Positions 8,726 through 63,790 of a stretch of DNA of 64,000 nucleotides are shown one piece after another. The stretch's first letter is position 1; each line of letters opens with the position of its first letter. The notes under the pieces were generated by a model, which had not been told where the DNA came from, made no database searches, and was given only the letters and a program-made list of their open reading frames with translations. Where the stretch lies: NCBI RefSeq assembly GCF_003991155.1, contig NZ_CP031295.1. One strand, given 5' to 3'. The translations under genes and the position numbers were made by a program. Origin of the DNA: Escherichia coli. GTDB lineage: Bacteria > Pseudomonadota > Gammaproteobacteria > Enterobacterales > Enterobacteriaceae.

Positions 8726-9997
8726 TCAGAATGAAGCAATGGGGATCTCAGTCCATTGTGTTGTATACGAAGGCGAGAGCATTTCCCGTTTCATTTGCCA
8801 TTCAGGGGCGGTTCCTCGCCCCGCAAACCACACTTTCCCTTTTCCAGACTGGTTCAGTTCATCGAGTGTTTTCATTAACTTTTCGCTGTTTTTACGGGGC
8901 TGGATCTCATCAAATAATCCCGGCTGCGCTATACCCGATGGTGTGAAATCAGCCAGCATGACTCCTGCCTTCATATAGCGGTACCCTTCACGCCAGACAT
9001 GGTTTAACGCTCTGCATGCTGCGGCAATAATGTCCCGGCTGTCCTGTGTGGGTAATGGAAGCTTTTCCACAGCGGCATTGCTGTAACAGGGTTCTTTTAC
9101 TGCAAAGGGGGATGTCCGTACAAATGTCGTCACCTGCCGGCAATACTGACGCTCCCCACGTAGTTTCTCTGCGGCCCGCTCTGCATACTGAACAACAGCC
9201 TGGTGCATGGCATCTTTGTCTGTGATTCGTTCACCAAAACTGCGACTACAGACAATCTGCTGTTTTGCCGGTGGTGCTTCTTCCAGGGATATGCAGGACT
9301 CGCCGTTGAGTTCGCGTACCGTACGCTCAAGAATGACGCTGAAGTTTTTCCGGATGAATGCCGTGTTAGCCTGCGCCAGCTGCAGTGCTGTGTTAATACC
9401 CAGCGCATTCAGCTTTTCCGTCAGTCTGCGTCCTACTCCCCAGACCTCACCAACTGGCTGCAGCCCCAGTAGCTTCAAGATCCGATTACGGTTTTCTGCC
9501 TCCAGCGCGACCACACCGGAAAACTGTGGCCATTGCTTTGTTGCCCACTGTGCACTTTTAGCCAGCGTTTTTGTAGGCGCAATGCCCACCCCCATGGTGA
9601 GTCCTGTCCAGCTCTTTACCTGTTCCCTGAGCTGATGACCAAAAACCTCCGGAGAGATGCAATGATTTATCCCCCGCAAATCAATGAACATTTCATCAAT
9701 TGAGTAGGGCTCAACTGCGGGAGAAAGCGACTCCAGAACAGCCATGACCCGTTGGCTCATGCTGTGGTACAGCGCATAATTGCTGGAAAATACATGTATT
9801 TTCTTCTCCAGGCGCATCTGTCTCACCTGAAACCAGGGCTGCCCCATTCTGATGCCAAGGGCTTTTGCCTCCGGGCTGCGCGCGATCACACAGCCATCGT
9901 TATTGCTGAGTACGATGACCGGTTCGTTGCGAAGGTCCGGGCGGAAAACTTTTTCACATGAGGCGTAGAAACTGTTGATATCAGCCAGTGCAAACAT
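8726..9997 (-). CDS. impB: error-prone Y-family polymerase subunit (UmuC/ImpB family)
   Basis: MFALADINSFYASCEKVFRP... N-terminus typical of UmuC/MucB/ImpB; 423 aa. Confidence 0.9.
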   Translation of the reverse strand: MFALADINSFYASCEKVFRPDLRNEPVIVLSNNDGCVIARSPEAKALGIRMGQPWFQVRQMRLEKKIHVFSSNYALYHSMSQRVMAVLESLSPAVEPYSIDEMFIDLRGINHCISPEVFGHQLREQVKSWTGLTMGVGIAPTKTLAKSAQWATKQWPQFSGVVALEAENRNRILKLLGLQPVGEVWGVGRRLTEKLNALGINTALQLAQANTAFIRKNFSVILERTVRELNGESCISLEEAPPAKQQIVCSRSFGERITDKDAMHQAVVQYAERAAEKLRGERQYCRQVTTFVRTSPFAVKEPCYSNAAVEKLPLPTQDSRDIIAAACRALNHVWREGYRYMKAGVMLADFTPSGIAQPGLFDEIQPRKNSEKLMKTLDELNQSGKGKVWFAGRGTAPEWQMKREMLSPSYTTQWTEIPIASF

Positions 9998-10434
9998 CAG
10001 CGTAACTCCCGCGTCCTGTGTATCACGTGAGTGACAACACCAAAAATACAGATGTTTTCCGGATACAGTGTGCGGAATTCCGGGCTGTCTGAAACCGGCT
10101 CCAGTGCCGGGCGTGGGCGCAACAGCAGTCGTTTGACGGTGAACTCACCGTCGATCTCAGCGATAACGATGTCCCCGTGTTGTGGTTTCTCGGCCCTGTC
10201 CACTACCAGCAGATCACCATTCTGCACGCCAGCCTGGTTCATCGATTCACCGCTGGCGCGCAGAAAGAAGGTGGCTGCAGGTCTGCTGATGCAATAGCTG
10301 TTCAGATCCAGTTCCTGCTCAGCATAATCAGTGGCAGGCGAAGGAAAACCGGCCTGGCAACGATCGGCAAACAACGGTCGCACGTAACTGTCATCGCCTG
10401 AAGGGTCAGCCGGACGGTGATAAACGGTACTCAT
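9997..10434 (-). CDS. impA: UmuD/ImpA-like S24 peptidase
   Basis: LexA-type autocleaving domain with SGESM serine motif; translationally coupled to impB. Confidence 0.85.
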   Translation of the reverse strand: MSTVYHRPADPSGDDSYVRPLFADRCQAGFPSPATDYAEQELDLNSYCISRPAATFFLRASGESMNQAGVQNGDLLVVDRAEKPQHGDIVIAEIDGEFTVKRLLLRPRPALEPVSDSPEFRTLYPENICIFGVVTHVIHRTRELR

Positions 10435-10679
10435 GCTGCAGGCAGCCAGCTGTCGTCCTGCCAGATTTCTTCCAGCAGAGACAGGATACGTTCTTTATCC
10501 TTGTCGTTGCGGGCTCCTGTGACAGATACAGACGGGGCGCTGCCCTGGTCAATACGCAGCCAGATTTCCGGGTAGTGTGGTTTCAGACGTTGTTCGATTT
10601 CATTCTGTAGCGCCTGAAGTGTGCCTGATTTGAGGTTTTTTGTGCTCTGGCGGTCGAAAAGAATTTCAATGCGGATCAT
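10431..10679 (-). CDS. impC: ImpC-like small protein
   Basis: First gene of the three-gene operon; start placed at MIRIEILFDRQ (ATG 10677-10679). Confidence 0.7.
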   Translation of the reverse strand: MIRIEILFDRQSTKNLKSGTLQALQNEIEQRLKPHYPEIWLRIDQGSAPSVSVTGARNDKDKERILSLLEEIWQDDSWLPAA

Positions 10680-10702
10680 GTTCTCATCTCCCTTTTTTAT
10701 TG

Positions 10703-10718
10703 CTGTATGTATATACAG
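10703..10718. promoter_or_regulatory. LexA box (SOS operator) upstream of impC
   Basis: CTGTATGTATATACAG fits the CTGT-N8-ACAG consensus, about 25 bp upstream of the impC start. Confidence 0.75.
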
Positions 10719-11072
10719 TATTCTAATAACTGAATCCACACACAGTCAAATGTCATTATTGTGACTAAAAAACGCTCAATTCTCTGAGAGTGTGGCTGTA
10801 TGCCTGCTGTGGACTGCTGTGTCCAGCTTATCCACAGCATTTTGCGCACGGTTCTGTGAATAAAATACCTGGTTACCCAGGCCGTGCCGGCACGTTAACC
10901 GGGCTGCATCCGATGCAAGTGTGTCGCTGTCGCCGGCCTCCTCACCCGGTCACGTTTCGTCGTTCCTCCTCCACGCGCTGCGGCTTCGGGGCCGCACCTG
11001 CATTCGTATGCGGTCGCCCGGTTACAGGTGCGGCACGGCCTGATGGAGGCCGCATGTGAGAGGAGAATTCCC

Positions 11073-11999
11073 ATGCCAAACTGGTGCTCGAATCGTATGC
11101 ATTTTTCTGGTGAACCGGCACAGATTGCTGAGATTAAACGACTGGCCAGCGGTGCCGTCACACCGCTTTATCGCCGCGCCACAAATGAAGGTATTCAGCT
11201 GTTTCTGGCCGGAAGTGCCGGACTTCTGCAGACCACTGAAGATGTGCAGTTTGAACCGTGCCCCGGACTGACGGATGCCGGACGTGGTGTTGTATCGCCG
11301 GAGAATATCGCGTTCACCCGCTGGCTGACACACCTGCAGAACGGTGTACTGCTGGATGAGCAAAACTGCCTGATGCTGCATGAACTCTGGCTGCAGAGTG
11401 GTACTGGCCAGCGTCGCTGGGAAGGATTACCGGATGAGGTCAGGGAAACCATCACCGTGCATTTCACCGCAAAAAGAGGTGACTGGTGTGGCTTCTGGAG
11501 TAACGAGGATGTATCGGTGTGGTGGAACCGTCTGTGTGACAATGTACTGCCGGAAAAAACCATGCCGTTTGACCTGCTGACGGTTCTGCCCACCCGCCTG
11601 GATGTTGAAGTGAATGGCTTTAACGGTGGTGTTCTGAACGGTGTTCCTTCTGCGTATCACTGGTATACGGAACAGTATGGCGTGAAGTGGCCTGTGGGGT
11701 ATGAGGTGAATATCAGCCGTCAGGGAGAAAACTTCATTCAAGTGGATTTCGACACGCCGTGGTGTCAGCCGGAAAGCAACGTTGTTGCAGAATTAAGCCG
11801 CCGTTTCGGCTGCACGCTGGAGCACTGGTACGCCGAACAGGGCTGCAATTTCTGTGGCTGGCAGCGATATGAGCGTGGAGAGCTTGTTGATGTGCTGTGG
11901 GGGGAACTGGAATGGTCTTCCCCGACAGATGATGATGAGCTGCCGGAAGTCACCGCGCCGGAGTGGATAGTCGACAAGGTGGCGCATTACGGGGGATGA
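11073..11999 (+). CDS. conserved leading-region protein, Cys/Trp-rich, unknown function (308 aa)
   Basis: ORF with GAGAGGAG RBS; many W and C residues (PNWCSNRMHF, WCGFWSNEDVSVWWNRLC); no enzymatic motif recognised. Confidence 0.65.
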   Translation: MPNWCSNRMHFSGEPAQIAEIKRLASGAVTPLYRRATNEGIQLFLAGSAGLLQTTEDVQFEPCPGLTDAGRGVVSPENIAFTRWLTHLQNGVLLDEQNCLMLHELWLQSGTGQRRWEGLPDEVRETITVHFTAKRGDWCGFWSNEDVSVWWNRLCDNVLPEKTMPFDLLTVLPTRLDVEVNGFNGGVLNGVPSAYHWYTEQYGVKWPVGYEVNISRQGENFIQVDFDTPWCQPESNVVAELSRRFGCTLEHWYAEQGCNFCGWQRYERGELVDVLWGELEWSSPTDDDELPEVTAPEWIVDKVAHYGG

Positions 12000-12038: not shown

Positions 12039-12383
12039 CCGACAAAGGATGTCGCCGTGCTCCTCTTTTTACTGCGCCGGCTGACGCGGCGCGGCAGGAA
12101 CGCTGCCTGTGGTCAGTGTCCCGCGTCCGGCGGGCACGGGACGGGCGCTTTTACTGCTCCCGGCTGGCACCGGTGACAGTGTACGCCAGCCTGTCGCCCT
12201 TTTCTGATGAACGCCCTTCAAGCCGCTTTCGCGGCATATTCTCGCCGTCAAAAAGACGACGGCTGCGATATTCCACGGTCGGCCTGACCCGTTACCGGAC
12301 GCGGTGAACAGCCCACAGGCAGCGGGGAACGGGCACCACAGGGGTGCCCTCCCGGTGCCCTCTGTAAGAGAAGGAGCGTTGTT

Positions 12384-14596: not shown

Positions 14597-14980
14597 CTGC
14601 CGGTCCCCGGACAGAGCACAAAGGAAGTCGCCGCCGGCTCCGCTTTACCCGGCCATGCAGGGCATGGCCTTGTGGTTTTTCAGTTATGTGGCCTCAGCGT
14701 CGTGTGCGGGCTGTGCCGTGCCTCCATCTTAGCCGGGCTGGCGTTGATGCAAGGGTACGCTTCGCCGCTGCGGTCACCCGGTCCCTCCTTCCCGTCTGCC
14801 GTGATTTTCCGGTCGTTCACCCGCTCAGATTTCGCGGTCTCACCCTGCAACTCCCGTCAGCCGTGTGCGTCAGGCTGCGGCTTCCCTTGCGCCCCTGCAT
14901 CCCCGCCTGTTCGCCCGGCTTTTATGGAGGCACGGCACCGCCCGGTGTCGCGGAATATGTGAACAACGGAGGAAAACATC

Positions 14981-16224: not shown

Positions 16225-16870
16225 TGTTCCTGATGTTGTTGTTCCTTTATCTGCTGCTCTGATTCTGACTACTGCAGTGTTGTTCTGTCTGCCGGGCGCA
16301 CCTTCGGCTCCCGGCTGCCTGGCGGCATCCGGTCGTCAGGCCCGACTCCGACAGGCAGCTGCTGGCGCACCCGCCAGTCTCCGCCGAACCCGCTGGCGCG
16401 GTTTCGGGCTGTCGCTACGGTCCGATGCGTGAAAACCCCGGGCTTGCAGCGACCGTTCCGGTCGCGCCACCCTTGTCGCGCCGTGGCCTGCGCTCCCGGC
16501 ATCCCGGCAAAAGGCCGCCGGGATGTAAGGGGCAACGCCGTTTCGCGCACGCGCTCTCCGTCGTTGCGGCGGGTCCCTGCTCATTGCCTGCCGGTGCCAC
16601 ACACCCGTATGAGTCCCTGTCGCCGGGGGCTGATACAGCCACAACCTGCCGCACTGACTGTCCAGGGTAAATGAACAGCCCACAAAATTTTTTACCCAAA
16701 ACCCGGTAAAAAATTTTGCGTTCTGCCCAGGACAGGTGCGTCAGGCCGTGGCAGTGATGCCCCTTGCGGCGAAGGTTCTCAAACGGGTGAAGTTCATACC
16801 ACAGGGAATACAGCAGCAGGTTCCCGCGAAACGTCAAAACCGCGGCTCCCGAAACTCAACGGGTGATGTT
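16225..16870 (+). repeat. GC-rich structured repeat, copy 1 (Frpo/ssi-like single-strand promoter candidate)
   Basis: About 650 bp near-identical to 19510-20185 and 24965-25608; internal palindrome AAAATTTTTTACC...GGTAAAAAATTTT at 16684-16718. Confidence 0.7.
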
Positions 16871-17097
16871 CTTTAAAAATCAGGATTTATTTCAGACTCC
16901 GGCAATACGCATTTATGTGTTCTGTCAGTCATCCGGCTGGCAGGTAATGAGAACGCAGGAACAGAAGGAGGAAAACACCGGAGAACGTCAGACGCAGATA
17001 TGAAAAAAGCAGGTCAGGGACCTGCTTAATCCACACCGCAGAGACTGCACGAACAGTCTTTACGGTTTCATTAATTAACGTCATAAGAGGCTAAATT

Positions 17098-17328
17098 ATG
17101 ACAGTAAGTATTGTTTCACCTTCCGCAGCGGCTGTAAAGCCCCGCCGTCATCCCCGTTTCAGACGCGAAGACATCCCCGCGCCGGAAATTGACCCCGTGC
17201 TGAAAGCCTTCGGGCGACACATTGCCCGGAGTTTTCACCGGGGGCGTGGTGTACACATCCCCGCCATGAAAAACACGGCCTTCGGGCAGGTGCTCCGCAC
17301 ACTCGAACTGAAACGCGCTTTTAACTGA
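17098..17328 (+). CDS. small basic hypothetical protein (76 aa)
   Basis: First ORF downstream of repeat copy 1; AGAGG RBS. Confidence 0.5.
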   Translation: MTVSIVSPSAAAVKPRRHPRFRREDIPAPEIDPVLKAFGRHIARSFHRGRGVHIPAMKNTAFGQVLRTLELKRAFN

Positions 17329-19509: not shown

Positions 19510-20185
19510 GTTACTGATGTTGTTGTTCCTGCTACTGTTCTTCTTTTTCCTGCTGCTCTGATTCTGACTACTGCAGTGTTGTCCTGTCTGCCGGGCGCAC
19601 CTTCGGCTCCCGGCTGCCTGGCGGCATCCGGTCGTCAGGCCCGACTCCGACAGGCAGCTGCTGGCGCACCTGCCAGTCTCCGCCGAACCCGCTGGCGCGG
19701 TTTCGGGCTGTCGCTACGGTCCGATGCGTGAAAACCCCTGGCTTGCAGCGACCGTTCCGGTCGCGCCGCCTCTGTCGCGCCGTGGCCTGCGCTCCTGGCA
19801 TCCCGGCAAAAGACCGCCGGGATGTAAGGGGCAACGCCGTTTCGCAAACCGCGCTTCACGTCGTTGCGGCGGGTCCCTGCCCGTTGTTCTGTCCGGTGCC
19901 ATTCACCTGTTTAAGCCCCTGTCGCCGGGGGCAAAGACAGCCACAACCGTCTCCGCCAGTCCAGGGGTGAAATGTACATCCCGCAAAACTTTTTGCCCAA
20001 AAGCAGGCAAAAACTTTTGCGGGATGTACATTTCACCCCCGGACAGTCGTTTCCGTCCGTGGCAGTGATGCCCCTTGCGGCGAAGGTTCTCAAAAAGGTG
20101 ATGGTGAATACCGGAGGGAACAAAAGGCAGGTCCCCGCAAAACGTCAAAACCGCGGCTCCCGAAACTCAAAAGATGATGGGGGCT
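19510..20185 (+). repeat. GC-rich structured repeat, copy 2 (Frpo/ssi-like), upstream of ssb
   Basis: Near-identical to copies 1 and 3; long hairpin 19962-20041 (GGGGTGAAATGTACATCCCGCAAAACTTTTTGCC ... GGCAAAAACTTTTGCGGGATGTACATTTCACCCC) with a single central mismatch. Confidence 0.7.
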
Positions 20186-20212
20186 GAAAACATCAACAGA
20201 AGGAGGCACATC

Positions 20213-23065: not shown

Positions 23066-23119
23066 TAAACAACCACACCGCCCCGCCGGAGACGGGGCGG
23101 CAGCAAGGGAGATACCGTG

Positions 23120-23554
23120 ATGAAAACTGAACTGACCCTGAATGTATTACAGACCATGAGCGCACAGGAATATGAAGATATCCGGGCAGCCGGAAGTGAT
23201 GAACGTCGTGAGCTGACACACGCCGTGATGCGGGAACTGGATGCGCCGGACAACTGGACGATGAACGGCGAGTACGGCAGCGAGTTTGGCGGATTTTTCC
23301 CCGTCCAGGTCCGTTTCACGCCTGCCCACGAACGTTTCCACCTGGCGTTATGTTCACCGGGCGATGTCTCTCAGGTCTGGGTGCTGGTTCTGGTGAATGC
23401 CGGTGGTGAGCCGTTTGCGGTGGTTCAGGTACAGCGGCGGTTTGCACCGGAAGCCGTCAGCCATTCACTGGCACTGGCGGCGTCACTGGACGCGCAGGGG
23501 TACAGCGTCAGTGACATCATCCATATCCTGATGGCGGAAGGAGGTCAGGCATGA
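23120..23554 (+). CDS. psiB: plasmid SOS inhibition protein PsiB
   Basis: [46 protein letters not shown]... matches F PsiB as recalled. Confidence 0.9.
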
Positions 23555-24270
23555 GCGCACGTTCACAGGCACTGGTTCCTCTCAGCACAGAGCAACAGGC
23601 CGCATGGCGGGCGGTGGCGGAGACCGAAAAACGCCGCCATCAGGGTAACACGCTGGCTGAATATCCGTATGCGGGGGCGTTTTTCCGCTGTCTGAACGGA
23701 AGCCGCAGGATATCGCTGTCTGACCTGCGATTTTTCATGCCGTCCCTGACCGCAGAAGAACTGCACGGCAACCGTCTTCAGTGGCTGTATGCCATCGATG
23801 TGCTGATTGAAACACAGGGCGAGGTCTGCCTCCTTCCCCTTCCCGGTGATGCAGCAGAGCGCTTGTTCCCGTCGGTGCGGTTTCGTGTCAGGGAACGCAG
23901 TCGCCATAAATCCGCGCTGGTCATGCAGAAGTACAGCCGCCAGCAGGCGAGGGAGGCAGAGCAGAAAGCCCGTGCGTACCAGGCGCTGGTCGCTCAGGCT
24001 GAAATCGAACTGGCATTCCATTCGCCGGAAACAGTCGGAAGCTGGCATGCACGCTGGAGTGACCGGGTGGCAGAGCATGACCTGGAAACCCTGTTCTGGC
24101 AGTGGGGCGAGCGTTTTCCGTCACTGGCCGGAATGGAACGCTGGCAGTGGCAGGATATGCCATTCTGGCAGGTCATCGCAGAGGCTGGTATGGCGGCAAG
24201 GGTGGTCGGTCATGCTGTTCGTGAGATGGAGCGGTGGATGGTGCCGAACAAACTCCGGGAGGCAGCGTGA
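23551..24270 (+). CDS. psiA: PsiA
   Basis: Translationally coupled to psiB; 239 aa matching F PsiA as recalled. Confidence 0.9.
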
Positions 24271-24491
24271 TGCGGCAACAATCACACGGATTTCCCGTGA
24301 ACGGTCTGAATGAGCGGATTATTTTCAGGGAAAGTGAGTGTGGTCAGCGTGCAGGTATATGGGCTATGATGTGCCCGGCGCTTGAGGCTTTCTGCCTCAT
24401 GACGTGAAGGTGGTTTGTTGCCGTGTTGTGTGGCAGAAAGAAGATAGCCCCGTAGTAAGTTAATTTTCATTAACCACCACGAGGCATCCCT

Positions 24492-24704
24492 ATGTCTAGT
24501 CCACATCAGGATAGCCTCTTACCGCGCTTTGCGCAAGGAGAAGAAGGCCATGAAACTACCACGAAGTTCCCTTGTCTGGTGTGTGTTGATCGTGTGTCTC
24601 ACACTGTTGATATTCACTTATCTGACACGAAAATCGCTGTGCGAGATTCGTTACAGAGACGGACACAGGGAGGTGGCGGCTTTCATGGCTTACGAATCCG
24701 GTAA
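24492..24704 (+). CDS. mok: mok-like overlapping leader ORF of the hok locus (flmC-like)
   Basis: ORF overlapping hok in another frame, as in hok/sok-type loci. Confidence 0.45.
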
Positions 24705-24964: not shown

Positions 24965-25608
24965 ATTCTCTTTTTCTTCCTGCTCTGATTCTGACTACTG
25001 CAGTGTTGTCCTGTCTGCCGGGCGTACCTTCGGCTCCCGGCTGCCTGGCGGCATCCGGTCGTCAGGCCCGACTCCGACAGGCAGCTGCTGGCGCACCTGC
25101 CAGTCTCCGCCGAACCCGCTGGCGCGGTTTCGGGCTGTCGCTACGGTCCGATGCGTGAAAACCCCTGGCTTGCAGCGACCGTTCCGGTCGCGCCGCCTCT
25201 GTCGCGCCGTGACCTGCGCTCCCGGCATCCCGGCAAAAGGCGCCGGGATGTAAGGCGCAACGCCGTTTCGCAAACCGCGCTTCACGTCGTTGCGGCGGGT
25301 CCCTGCCCGTTGTTGTGTCCGGTGCCATTCACCAGTTTAAGCCCCTGTCGCCGGGGGCATAGACAGCCACAACCGTCTCCGCCAGTCCAGGGGTGAAATG
25401 CACATCCCGCAAAACTTTTTGCCCAGAAGCAGGCAAAAACTTTTGCGGTCTGCCCCCGGACAGTCGTTTCCGGCCGTGGCAGTGATGCCCCATGCGGCGA
25501 AGGTTCTCAAACAGGTGATGGTGAATACCGGAGGGAACAAAAGGCAGGTCCCCGCAAAACGTCAAAACCGCGGCTCCCGAAACTCAACAGATGATGGGGG
25601 CTGAAAAC
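24965..25608 (+). repeat. GC-rich structured repeat, copy 3 (Frpo/ssi-like)
   Basis: Near-identical to copy 2; palindrome GCAAAACTTTTTGCC...GGCAAAAACTTTTGC at 25407-25448. Confidence 0.7.
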
Positions 25609-27661: not shown

Positions 27662-28074
27662 TTTTCCACCTCTGGTGACTTTATCCGTAAATAATTTAAC
27701 CCACTCCACAAAAAGGCTCAACAGGTTGGTGGTTCTCACCACCAAAAGCACCACACCCCACGCAAAAACAAGTTTTTGCTGATTTTTCTTTATAAATAGA
27801 GAGTTATGACAAATTAGTTCTTCTTGCTCTCTTTGTGATATTTAAAAAAGCGGTGTTGGCGCAGCTACAACACCGCGCCGACACCGCTTTTTAGGGGTGG
27901 TACTGACTATTTTCATAAAAAACATCATCTTATATTAGGGGTGCTGCTAGCGGCGCGGTGTGTTTTTTTACAGGACGCCCCTGGGGGCGCTGCTAGCGGT
28001 GCGTCCCTGTTTGCATTATGAATTTTAGTGTTTCGAAATTAACTTTATTTTATGTTCAAAAAAGGTAATCTCTA
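27662..28074 (-). other. oriT: origin of transfer (oriT), F-type, nic site near 27752/27753 on the reverse strand
   Basis: Reverse complement of 27740-27775 reads TTTGCGTGGGGTGTGGTGCTTTTGGTG (F nic region as recalled); inverted repeats and AT-rich tracts between gene X and traM. Confidence 0.85.
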
Positions 28075-61976: not shown

Positions 61977-62189
61977 ATGAATGGATTCAGAAACAGTTCA
62001 CGGAACGGTCAGGTCTGGCGTTACCAGCGTGCCGGCGGGCGGGCCGTTATTCTGGAGGTCAGTGGACGCTGGATGGAAGCGGCAGAAGCATGGCGACGGG
62101 CTGCCTGCATAGCTCCCCGGACAGACTGGCAACAGTTTGCCCGGAAAAGGGCTGAACACTGCCACCGGCGCTGCCGGGGAAGGGTGTAA
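61977..62189 (+). CDS. small basic hypothetical protein (70 aa)
   Basis: ORF with AGGGAGG RBS; Arg/Trp-rich; uncertain. Confidence 0.35.
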   Translation: MNGFRNSSRNGQVWRYQRAGGRAVILEVSGRWMEAAEAWRRAACIAPRTDWQQFARKRAEHCHRRCRGRV

Positions 62190-62869
62190 CGAAAAAAGCA
62201 GCCTTCATTACTCCAGGAGTCAGAAGGCTGAAAGGAGTTTATGAGATTTGCTTTTTTTAATATCCGGTCGGGCAGTATGACCGGCCAGTTCTGAGTAGCA
62301 CAGAGTTTTTTCCGTATTAAGTCGCGATTTTATATTTTGTGATTAATTTCACAAAATAAGGTCTTATTCAATGTGTGCTGCGATATTCAGGGGGGCTGAA
62401 ATACAGGTGCCATTTATCTGATATGGAGAATAACATGAGGAAATATATTCCACTGGTATTATTTATCTTTTCATGGCCGGTATTGTCTGCAGATGTTCAC
62501 GGGCAGATTTATGCACCAGACAGAATGAATGTTAATTAGTTTATGAATACAACAGGGGCTGATCAGCAATCACCGGAACATCGTAGCTGACGCGTTCGCA
62601 ATGCTCAGTTGTCCCCCCCGGAAACGGGAAAAAGTAAGTTTTCCCCCGCTCCCGGCGTTTTTGTAACAAAAACAGGCAAATGGGGGTAATAGTCAGCAAC
62701 AGGGAATGTGGTATTATCGCGGCGGGTGTTTGAGCCTTTCTGGTTCAGGCAAGACGCAGGTACCAGAAATGCGAAGACCCCACTCGTTAATCCATTAACT
62801 CGTGAGGTCTGCATGAAGTACCTTAACACTACTGATTGTAGCCTCTTCTTTGCTGAGAGGTCAAAGTTT

Positions 62870-63019
62870 ATGACGAAATATGCCCTTATCGGGTTGCTCG
62901 CCGTGTGCGCCACGGTGTTGTGTTTTTCACTGATATTCAGGGAACGGTTATGTGAGCTGAATATTCACAGAGGAAATACAGTGGTGCAGGTAACTCTGGC
63001 CTACGAAGCACGGAAGTAA
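62870..63019 (+). CDS. srnB: Hok/Gef-family toxin (SrnB/PndA-like, 49 aa) with in-frame upstream extension from 62813
   Basis: MTKYALIGLLAVCATVLCFSLIFRERLCELNIHRGNTVVQVTLAYEARK resembles the Hok toxin at 24550. Confidence 0.75.
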   Translation: MTKYALIGLLAVCATVLCFSLIFRERLCELNIHRGNTVVQVTLAYEARK

Positions 63020-63560: not shown

Positions 63561-63689
63561 ATATTCACATTCTTGCTTATCTCAGGAGTGAGTGGTAGAT
63601 TGCTGATCGTTTAAGGAATTTTGTGGCTGGCCACGCCGTAAGGTGGCAGGGAACTGGTTCTGATGTGGATTTACAGGAGCCAGAAAAGC

Positions 63690-63790
63690 GAAAACCCCGA
63701 TAATCTTCTTCAAGTTTGGCGACTAGAAAGATTACCGGGGCCCCATAAAACCGCATAGCCAACAATTCAGCTATGCGGGGAGTATAGTTA
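63690..63790 (-). ncRNA. copA: putative CopA antisense RNA / CopT target region
   Basis: Long imperfect hairpins (CCCCGATAATCTT...AAGATTACCGGGG and CCGCATAGC...GCTATGCGG) between copB and the leader peptide; boundaries approximate. Confidence 0.35.

Follow-up and report, generated by a model that had tools for sequence, protein, structure and literature searches.

The window analysed here, a 64-kb stretch of Escherichia coli DNA, very probably carries a classical plasmid impCAB operon, repressed by LexA and encoding a Pol V-like polymerase, on an IncF-type conjugative plasmid. Its three minus-strand open reading frames span 8726..10679 in the order impC, impA, impB, and nothing in the sequence was found that contradicts this explanation. 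The evidence comes from the position of the operon relative to the origin of transfer, the integrity of the encoded proteins, and the quality and conservation of the operator.

The F-type oriT nic site GGGGTGT/GGTGCTTT, which we take to be the nic sequence of F TraI, is present as an exact match in a single copy on the minus strand (27745..27759), flanked by the SLT gene and traM, an arrangement shared with F. Since nic lies on the minus strand, this strand would be the transferred one, and the leading region would run from 27745 downward. The plus strand of this region carries ssb, a parB-like gene, psiB, psiA, a methylase gene and a DUF1281 gene, and the minus strand carries imp. With nic in this orientation, ssb, psiB and psiA would use the incoming single-stranded DNA as template. 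The template for impCAB would be present only after synthesis of the complementary strand, so that the operon would not be transcribed from the incoming single strand. It was reported that leading genes are induced from single-stranded DNA promoters and that conventional promoters require double-stranded DNA (PMC12672017). The impCAB operon is found at the end of the leading region farther from oriT, 17 kb away from nic, and both this edge position and its orientation agree with published surveys of umuDC-like operons.

With regard to SOS inhibition, PsiB binds RecA. The psiB gene (23120..23554, plus strand) encodes a conjugation-system SOS inhibitor that matches the NCBIfam equivalog NF010255 with 277 bits (cut-off 100), the alignment covering residues 2-145 of an open reading frame starting at 23117. 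The psiA gene (23551..24270, plus strand), whose start overlaps the end of psiB, encodes plasmid SOS inhibition protein A and matches NF010258 with 419 bits (cut-off 243). These scores confirm the first-pass annotation, which had placed psiB/psiA at 23120-24270. [quoted passage not shown] In comparison with the PsiB/PsiA module of F and ColIb-P9, the matches are at equivalog level, the same psiB-psiA overlap is present, and the psi genes likewise have the parB-like gene on one side and hok/sok on the other, near oriT; no difference was detected between these modules and the one described here, which is a standard one. The imp operon had also been described as lying beside the SOS-inhibition genes. 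The two do share the leading region, but the psi genes are 12.4 kb from the imp promoter and are not adjacent to it.

This distance would suit a different reading, in which imp is a module independent of psiB/psiA, the two form no selected programme, and history or recombination accounts for the place of imp at the edge of the island. Approximately 2,000 plasmid records contain the imp promoter together with impC, the match extending over at least 80% of the query, and approximately 2,500 other records match the query in part, those sampled mostly over the 111 bp that adjoin the DUF1281 gene. In pK71-77-2, for example, sopAB and repE, and not imp and stbAB, come after the DUF1281-methylase block. 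Many F-type plasmids thus have psiB and the same neighbours without imp, so that co-residence is not obligatory and the modules are separable; moreover, Samuel et al. regard it as unclear what umu-like genes do for plasmids. On the other hand, umu-like operons were found at leading-region island boundaries in late orientation in 90.3% of cases (PMC11541004), which argues for selection on orientation. In addition, RecA, the target of PsiB, is also needed for imp derepression and ImpA activation, which makes an interaction mechanistically unavoidable when both modules are present. A purely historical association therefore appears rather unlikely, although it deserves to be taken seriously.

The proteins themselves fit the classical operon closely. 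The impB gene (8726..9997, minus strand) encodes an intact UmuC-like Y-family translesion DNA polymerase of 423 aa, which matches the Pfam families IMS, IMS_C, IMS_HHH and DUF4113 as well as the NCBIfam UmuC subfamily NF002955 (790.9 bits, cut-off 431, alignment over 1-421 of 422), and Y-family polymerase structures match its residues 5-333. D6, F10, Y11, D101 and E102 (SIDE motif) and the QPGLF motif at 358-362 are present; ImpB thus combines the catalytic Asp/Asp/Glu set of a UmuC-like Y-family polymerase with the UmuC-type C-terminal extension.

The impA gene (9997..10434, minus strand) encodes a UmuD-like self-cleaving S24 peptidase subunit of 145 aa, with matches to Pfam Peptidase_S24 (85 bits) and to the NCBIfam model of the Pol V autoproteolytic subunit, NF007621 (143 bits, cut-off 110). 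Its match to the HumD model is below the cut-off of that model. Comparison with the UmuD structure 8gmt (E=3e-36) places the start of UmuD' at ImpA G29, and the ImpA cleavage site A28-G29, S64 and K101 align with UmuD C24-G25, S60 and K97. ImpA accordingly has both the Ser-Lys dyad and the (Ala/Cys)-Gly self-cleavage site of UmuD-like S24 peptidases.

The first gene, impC (10431..10679, minus strand, ATG at 10679), encodes a DinI-like small protein of 82 aa. It matches the Pfam DinI family over the whole ImpC length (64.9 bits) but scores 41 bits against the 111-bit cut-off of the NCBIfam DinI equivalog, and is therefore a DinI-like paralogue and not a DinI orthologue. A Shine-Dalgarno sequence, GGGAG, was recognised by inspection at 10688..10692 (minus strand), 8 nt 5' of the impC ATG, and is kept in an alignment of eight sequences, except for GGAAG in two of them. 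The impC stop overlaps the impA start (ATGA) and the impA stop overlaps the impB start (TGATG, at 9997). Hence, a D-like gene lies directly 5' of a C-like gene and is translationally coupled to it, as in Pol V-type operons, and the DinI-like impC is the first gene and overlaps impA, as in impCAB of the TP110 type. The Pfam, NCBIfam and structure matches together bear out the original description of the genes as impC-impA-impB with UmuD/UmuC-like products.

No convincing intrinsic terminator was found 3' of impB: a 16-nt palindrome at 8716..8731 folds at -5.8 kcal/mol (z = -0.46), and a terminator scan near the impB end called nothing. No known RNA families were found in the imp region. A hairpin upstream resembles the hairpin 5' of a klcA-like gene and has no BLAST similarity to the large Frpo-type repeats.

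Degraded copies of the operon do occur elsewhere. The plasmid pECO-fce has ISEc53 in the operator and IS21 in impB, pSAN1-2010K-2577 retains just the promoter and ~57 impC codons, and the protein clusters contain many truncated ImpB and ImpC entries. It was also reported that deletion of imp genes has no effect on conjugation (PMC12211044, PMC10286972). Such observations would be expected if the operon were a decaying passenger that looks intact and provides neither translesion synthesis nor mutagenesis in this plasmid. Inactivating changes, which the first-pass annotation had named as a reason to abandon its claim, were however not found in the three imp genes, all of which are full length, with every catalytic residue checked present and both coupled junctions intact. 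ImpA and ImpC are identical to the UniRef representatives IMPA_ECOLX and IMPC_ECOLX, respectively, whereas the likeness of ImpB to the curated ImpB reference extends to membership of the same 90% cluster. Furthermore, many plasmids of E. coli, Salmonella and Shigella carry the 2.3 kb imp segment at 100% identity, and it was reported that the imp genes are under negative selection (PMC10286972). Decay in this plasmid is thus very improbable.

The classical reading is further supported by the operon's control region. The LexA operator (SOS box), TACTGTATATACATACAGCA, occupies 10701..10720 on the minus strand, with a CTGT-N8-ACAG core and an AT-rich spacer at 10703..10718. The consensus LexA box claimed upstream of imp at 10703-10718 is exact in position, CTGTATGTATATACAG being found there on the plus strand and reading CTGTATATACATACAG in operon orientation, and the 20-mer matches the ideal palindrome TACTG(TA)5CAGTA at 18 of 20 positions, with two mismatches. 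The predicted sigma-70 promoter (10720..10749, minus strand) consists of TTGACT at 10749..10744, an 18-nt spacer and TAGAAT at 10725..10720; it agrees with the consensus at 10 of 12 positions and is the best candidate within 8400..11200 and the only good match in that region. The first base of the operator is also the final one of the predicted -10 hexamer; from there the operator extends across the expected transcription start and stops 21 nt short of the impC ATG.

On its own, CTGT-N8-ACAG does not suffice as evidence, with ~0.93 copies expected per window and at least one copy in 62 of 100 shuffles, and the 20-mer and a LexA weight matrix were used instead. None of 100 shuffles contained a 20-mer with three or fewer mismatches to the ideal operator. 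On the matrix, which was built from a set of E. coli operators and is approximate, the imp operator scores 28.0 bits, above all operators of that set, compared with 15.5 for the next-best site in the window and a maximum of 17.6 in 20 shuffles. No other credible LexA site was detected in the 64 kb with this rough matrix, including near psiB, ssb and the tra genes, and the dqlB LexA site reported for pTF2 is absent from the window. The 15.5-bit site, which lies within impB (9386..9405), was dismissed as a chance match below the shuffle maximum. Similarly, a weak LexA-like site, GACTGTGTGTGGATTCAGTT (10728..10747, minus strand), overlaps the -35 hexamer but scores 10.9 bits on the same rough matrix, against a mean of 13.1 for the shuffle maxima; it is within the chance range, is probably not significant alone, and was rejected as a functional operator. 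The pTF2 copy of this second site is listed with a heterology index of 13.49 (PMC12211044).

An alignment of eight imp promoters from IncF, IncI-gamma and IncK plasmids showed that the CTGTA...ATACAGCA arms, the -35 and -10 hexamers and the intervening spacer are invariant except for a single base, the second in the spacer of the weak second site; the substitutions in the main box lie in its central spacer. In more distant Klebsiella IncFII(K) homologues (~50% ImpC identity), the upstream DNA cannot be aligned with the imp promoter described here, yet a LexA box is found in the equivalent position, TTGCAA-17-AATAAT being directly followed by AACTGTACATCCATACAGTA, 12 nt 5' of the ATG. The impCAB operon of pTF2 has the identical 20-mer at the same -21 distance to impC, with a heterology index of 1.60, and in an SOS-constitutive lexA mutant carrying pTF2, ImpC was up 21-fold, ImpA 9-fold and ImpB 2-fold (PMC12211044). 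The 2-fold increase of ImpB suggests that induction of the polymerase may be modest or limited post-transcriptionally. That the palindrome arose by chance from AT-rich sequence or serves a regulator other than LexA, leaving imp constitutive or under plasmid control, would be compatible with the near-single chance expectation of the bare core but is scarcely credible given a 20-mer so close to the ideal, placed exactly on the promoter, with half-sites invariant across replicon types, re-created in the unrelated upstream DNA of distant homologues and, in identical form, associated with protein levels raised 9- to 21-fold in an SOS-constitutive strain.

For LexA-repressed impCAB, the steps of repression and induction, the functions of the proteins and the timing at entry may be drawn from the sequence and the literature as follows. 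In undamaged cells, a dimer of host LexA on the operator at 10720..10701 would keep the sigma-70 promoter off; since the operator covers the expected transcription start, the promoter is expected to be shut without damage. Upon DNA damage, a RecA nucleoprotein filament would promote LexA self-cleavage and allow synthesis of one mRNA with three translationally coupled genes. ImpA would then undergo RecA*-dependent cleavage at A28-G29, catalysed by its own S64/K101 dyad and yielding ImpA', and an ImpA' dimer would join ImpB, with D6, D101 and E102 at its active site, to form a Pol V-like translesion polymerase that may raise UV survival and mutation rate. ImpC probably tunes the RecA filament and its co-protease activity, and hence the timing of ImpA processing. 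Tight repression of imp makes sense because overexpression of impCAB is toxic, a severe growth defect having been reported (PMC10286972).

During entry, ssb, psiB and psiA would be expressible from single-stranded DNA promoters, and PsiB would block RecA, so that LexA stays intact. Because the recipient encodes LexA itself and contains it before the plasmid arrives, imp should be silent throughout entry, and impCAB would become available solely as an ordinary SOS function once the plasmid is established. The earlier proposal that the plasmid suppresses SOS on entry and offers mutagenesis once established is supported by the strand geometry. The succession itself is existing knowledge, and a functional coupling of psi and imp is something we infer from the arrangement.

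A more specific possibility, which we hold with little confidence, is that the edge position, late orientation and exceptionally strong operator for host LexA act together as a fail-safe, a toxic polymerase being normally held silent on entry by PsiB and the LexA already there. By an extension of this idea that is just as doubtful, failure of PsiB, or a recipient LexA that does not recognise the operator, would let imp fire once the strand is duplexed. If true, fresh transconjugants might undergo a transient burst of mutagenesis, and plasmid and host might thereby adapt to each other more quickly, an effect analogous to that of imuABC (PMC4151985).

Several known systems are close to the operon described here. 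The impCAB operons of TP110, Shigella and pTF2 comprise the same three genes in the same order. The first description is said to be that of the IncI1 plasmid TP110 by Lodwick, Owen and Strike in 1990, and the operon was reportedly found on the Shigella flexneri virulence plasmid by Runyen-Janecky in 1999; mutagenesis activity has reportedly been published for both the TP110 and the Shigella imp genes. Whereas TP110 is an IncI1 plasmid, the operon studied here is in an IncF context, with F-type nic, tra, FinP and CopA. The chromosomal umuDC operon of E. coli (Pol V) likewise has a self-cleaving S24 subunit, a Y-family polymerase and a LexA box on its promoter, its D and C genes share one base at their junction, and the catalytic and cleavage residues are conserved. 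However, impCAB differs from umuDC in the extra upstream DinI-like gene inside the operon, in the Ala-Gly cleavage site of ImpA in place of the Cys-Gly of UmuD, and in lying on a plasmid, where it borders the leading region, rather than on the chromosome.

Other SOS-regulated modules of the UmuDC type on mobile elements include mucAB (pKM101), samAB (a cryptic plasmid of Salmonella), rumAB (R391/IncJ) and humD (phage P1), which are one- or two-gene modules without an impC-like first gene (reviewed in PMC7092418 and PMC11541004). Their sequences are clearly distinct from imp, with only ~80% identity over ~70 nt of umuD in Salmonella plasmids. ImpC resembles DinI, the RecA modulator of E. coli, in matching the DinI family over its full length and in being, very probably, LexA-controlled, and differs from it in falling short of the equivalog cut-off; its effect on RecA is presumed.

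The impCAB operon, its LexA box, its SOS induction, the toxicity of its overexpression, and the position and orientation of such operons at island ends are already published. The operon is real but ordinary, and its practical value as a discovery is small. Its relevance lies in antibiotic resistance: drugs that induce the SOS response, such as quinolones, would turn on a plasmid-borne error-prone polymerase, and among the resistance plasmids of the IncF and IncI groups a large share would be concerned.

The impCAB operon occupies the minus strand and comprises a DinI-like, a UmuD-like, and a UmuC-like gene. In the ORF listing, combined with a minus-strand reading of 8500..11100, impC extends over 10679..10431 (82 aa), impA over 10434..9997 (145 aa), and impB over 9997..8726 (423 aa). 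The impC ATG was placed at 10679 because translation begun at 10682 gives N-M, and a ribosome-binding site (GGGAG) is present 8 nt 5′ of it. Start and stop codons overlap at both junctions (ATGA between impC and impA, TGATG between impA and impB), as translational coupling would predict. At the distal end, impB (minus, ending at 8726) is convergent with stbB (plus, ending at 8721), and the 4-bp gap is bridged by a perfect 16-nt palindrome, TTCTGATATATCAGAA (8716-8731), each TGA stop coming from one of its arms; the palindrome is not convincing as a bidirectional terminator because its predicted hairpin is weak.

The first-pass annotation had allowed for inactivating changes in the imp genes, and none was seen in the ImpC, ImpA, or ImpB sequences. 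ImpC matches Pfam DinI (64.9 bits) and is considered DinI-like rather than DinI, since it does not reach the cut-off of the NCBIfam DinI equivalog (41 vs. 111). ImpA matches Peptidase_S24 (Pfam), scores above the cut-off of the Pol V autoproteolytic-subunit model (143 vs. 110), and aligns with solved UmuD at E = 3e-36; by global alignment, UmuD C24-G25, S60, and K97 correspond to ImpA A28-G29, S64, and K101, G29 being the residue where UmuD′ starts. ImpB carries the Pfam domains IMS, IMS_HHH, IMS_C, and DUF4113, matches the UmuC subfamily model from end to end (791 bits vs. 431; aligned 1-421 of 422), and is matched by Y-family polymerase structures over residues 5-333. It retains D6, F10, Y11, D101, and E102, as well as a QPGLF motif at the position of the UmuC clamp-binding motif, all of which we take to have the same roles as in UmuC. 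Exact look-up identified the ImpC and ImpA sequences as those behind the UniRef entries "Protein ImpC, RepID=IMPC_ECOLX" and "Protein ImpA, RepID=IMPA_ECOLX", each on at least 1000 contigs, and the ImpB cluster has 8482 members named UmuC, Y-family polymerase, or ImpB.

The LexA box previously noticed in front of the operon, CTGTATGTATATACAG, lies exactly where the first-pass annotation had put it (10703..10718) and is the sole CTGT-N8-ACAG in the window. Such a bare motif proves little alone because 0.93 copies are expected by chance. Far stronger evidence is provided by the 20-mer TACTGTATATACATACAGCA (10720..10701, minus strand), which has two mismatches to the ideal palindrome TACTG(TA)5CAGTA; sites within three mismatches of this ideal appeared in 0 of 100 dinucleotide-preserving shuffles. 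With an approximate position weight matrix derived from known E. coli operators, the 20-mer scores 28.0 bits, exceeding every training site, and the maximum over 20 shuffles is 17.6. The next-best site in the window, the LexA-like CGCTGGGTATTAACACAGCA inside impB (9386-9405), reaches 15.5 bits yet falls within the range of shuffled sequences and was rejected. A promoter scan gave as the best match of the region (10/12) a predicted minus-strand promoter with a -35 of TTGACT (10749..10744), an 18-nt spacer, and a -10 of TAGAAT (10725..10720); the operator therefore starts at the last -10 base and covers the expected start site.

An identical 20-mer has been reported on pTF2 at -21 from impCAB with a heterology index of 1.60 (PMC12211044, 2025), and the distance between operator and impC in the window is likewise 21 nt. 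A weak site on pTF2, AACTGAATCCACACACAGTC (heterology index 13.49; PMC12211044), is found here at 10728..10747. In an SOS-constitutive lexA mutant, ImpC was up 21-fold, ImpA 9-fold, and ImpB 2-fold (PMC12211044). It was also reported that overexpressing impCAB severely impairs growth and that the operon, present in >80% of I-complex plasmids, is under negative selection (PMC10286972, 2023). The initial observation of impCAB with a LexA box is confirmed, and the operon represents an already known system because it shows no departure from published impCAB.

At least 5000 records of the plasmid collection match the 2.3-kb imp region, many with 100% identity; the identical matches listed come from E. 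coli, Salmonella, Shigella, and Klebsiella and reside chiefly on conjugative plasmids, and the best among the matches listed is an IncFIA/FIB/FIC plasmid annotated with DinI-like, umuD, and Y-family polymerase genes. Eight imp promoters from IncF, IncI-gamma/K1, and IncK2/Z plasmids were aligned. The -35 and -10 hexamers and the main-box arms, CTGTA and ATACAGCA, are unchanged in all eight, as is the -35/-10 spacer except for one T/C position, base 2 of the spacer in the weak site. Five of the roughly 20 variable columns lie within the central spacer of the box, which occurs as ATATACAT, ATATATAT, ATATGCAT, ACAAACAT, or ATAAACAT. This pattern would fit constrained LexA half-site contacts, and the evidence is modest because the eight sequences are close relatives.

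On Klebsiella IncFII(K) plasmids, more distant ImpC homologues (~50% identical, by tblastn) again precede umuD- and umuC-like genes; the DNA upstream of them cannot be aligned with the window. Its order is TTGCAA-17 nt-AATAAT, AACTGTACATCCATACAGTA, 12 nt, and ATG, with the box at 2440-2500 of both Klebsiella loci (L003 and L005); AACTGTACATCCATACAGTA is a sulA-like, consensus LexA box directly after the -10, and its placement with respect to promoter and ATG matches that in the window. In L003, the umuC-like gene is seemingly absent or truncated, only a 123-nt ORF being annotated past umuD.

Several plasmids carry decayed or partial copies. In pECO-fce (NZ_CP015160.1, 2100-4010), the central spacer of the operator (window 10706-10713) is interrupted by ISEc53, an ISL3-family element that carries a ClbS/DfsB-like passenger gene; the insertion has an 8-bp target duplication, ATATACAT, and splits the promoter and left half-site off from the operon, and impB is broken by IS21. 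ISL3 elements may preferentially target this operator, an AT-rich palindrome. The IncI-gamma/K1 plasmid NZ_CP014662.1 (2430-2700) retains only the imp promoter, the box, and the first ~57 impC codons, a deletion having removed the remaining operon as far as stbB; its box, TACTGTATATATATACAGCA, is nearer consensus than that of the window, and the remnant is a putative orphan SOS-controlled promoter.

In approximately 2,000 plasmid records, impC and its promoter are present (query coverage of at least 80%), and ~2,500 others match the query partly, the sampled ones mostly over just the 111 bp adjoining the DUF1281 gene. In F-type plasmids that lack imp, such as NZ_CP040885.1 (3300-4050), homology ends near window ~10790, about 40 bp short of the imp -35, and after the DUF1281-methylase block come sopB, sopA, and repE where the window has imp, stbB, and parM. 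From this swap, imp and the stbAB partition genes appear to move as one alternative block. The imp and psiB/psiA modules are separable.

The identities of psiB (23120..23554) and psiA (23551..24270), both on the plus strand, hold by NCBIfam models (277 and 419 bits, respectively). The SOS-inhibition genes are present as claimed, but not beside imp: the modules are 12.4 kb apart. The F nic sequence, GGGGTGT/GGTGCTTT, is present as a single minus-strand copy (27759..27745) flanked by an SLT gene and traM; the traJ 5′ UTR and FinP follow just past it. In F transfer, the 5′ end of the nicked strand enters first, so the minus strand is the one transferred, and the leading region extends downward from 27745. 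The ssb, parB-like, psiB, psiA, antirestriction-like, methylase, and DUF1281 genes are on the plus strand, and the incoming strand is therefore their template. The first minus-strand block, 17 kb from nic, is impCAB, which requires the complementary strand as template.

The leading region also contains long hairpins and repeats. The hairpins at 12101-12324 and 14707-14944 (arms of 30-32 nt, 164-174 nt apart) lie directly upstream of a DNA methylase gene (12384) and an antirestriction-like gene (14981), and would fit, respectively, the class 3 and class 2 ssDNA promoters described in PMC12672017; an ORF overlapped by the former, hypothetical in related plasmids, may be spurious. On the transferred strand, a long imperfect hairpin (10878-11042) immediately precedes the DUF1281 gene; it lies ~130 bp away from the imp -35, faces the opposite way, and is clearly homologous to the 14707-14944 hairpin in front of the klcA/ardB-like gene. 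The 301-nt segment holding it (10780-11080) folds as ssDNA at -72 kcal/mol (z = -4.4), and the hairpin looks like an additional class 2 promoter, which would be the copy farthest from oriT. Three dispersed ~650-bp direct repeats (16225-16868, 19524-20191, and 24969-25608; 86-96% identical), one ending at the ssb start, share a small hairpin, GCTGCCTGGCGGCATCCGG/CCCGACTCCGACAGGCAGC, and are probably Frpo/ssi class 1 single-stranded promoters. Rfam further identified two sok antitoxin RNAs of hok/sok-type loci (24376-24552 and 62724-62882), a CopA-like RNA (63686-63774) indicative of an IncFII-type replicon at the window's right end, and several "antisense to pHK01" RNAs (17004-17103 and 62086-62271), one of which, AS-pc01, falls in the leading region.

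The interpretation offered by the first-pass annotation, that SOS is suppressed on entry and mutagenesis follows establishment, is supported by this strand geometry, with psiB/psiA on the plus strand and impCAB on the minus. PsiB would block RecA, so that LexA, which is host-made and present in the recipient beforehand, would stay intact and could bind the imp promoter once it is double-stranded.
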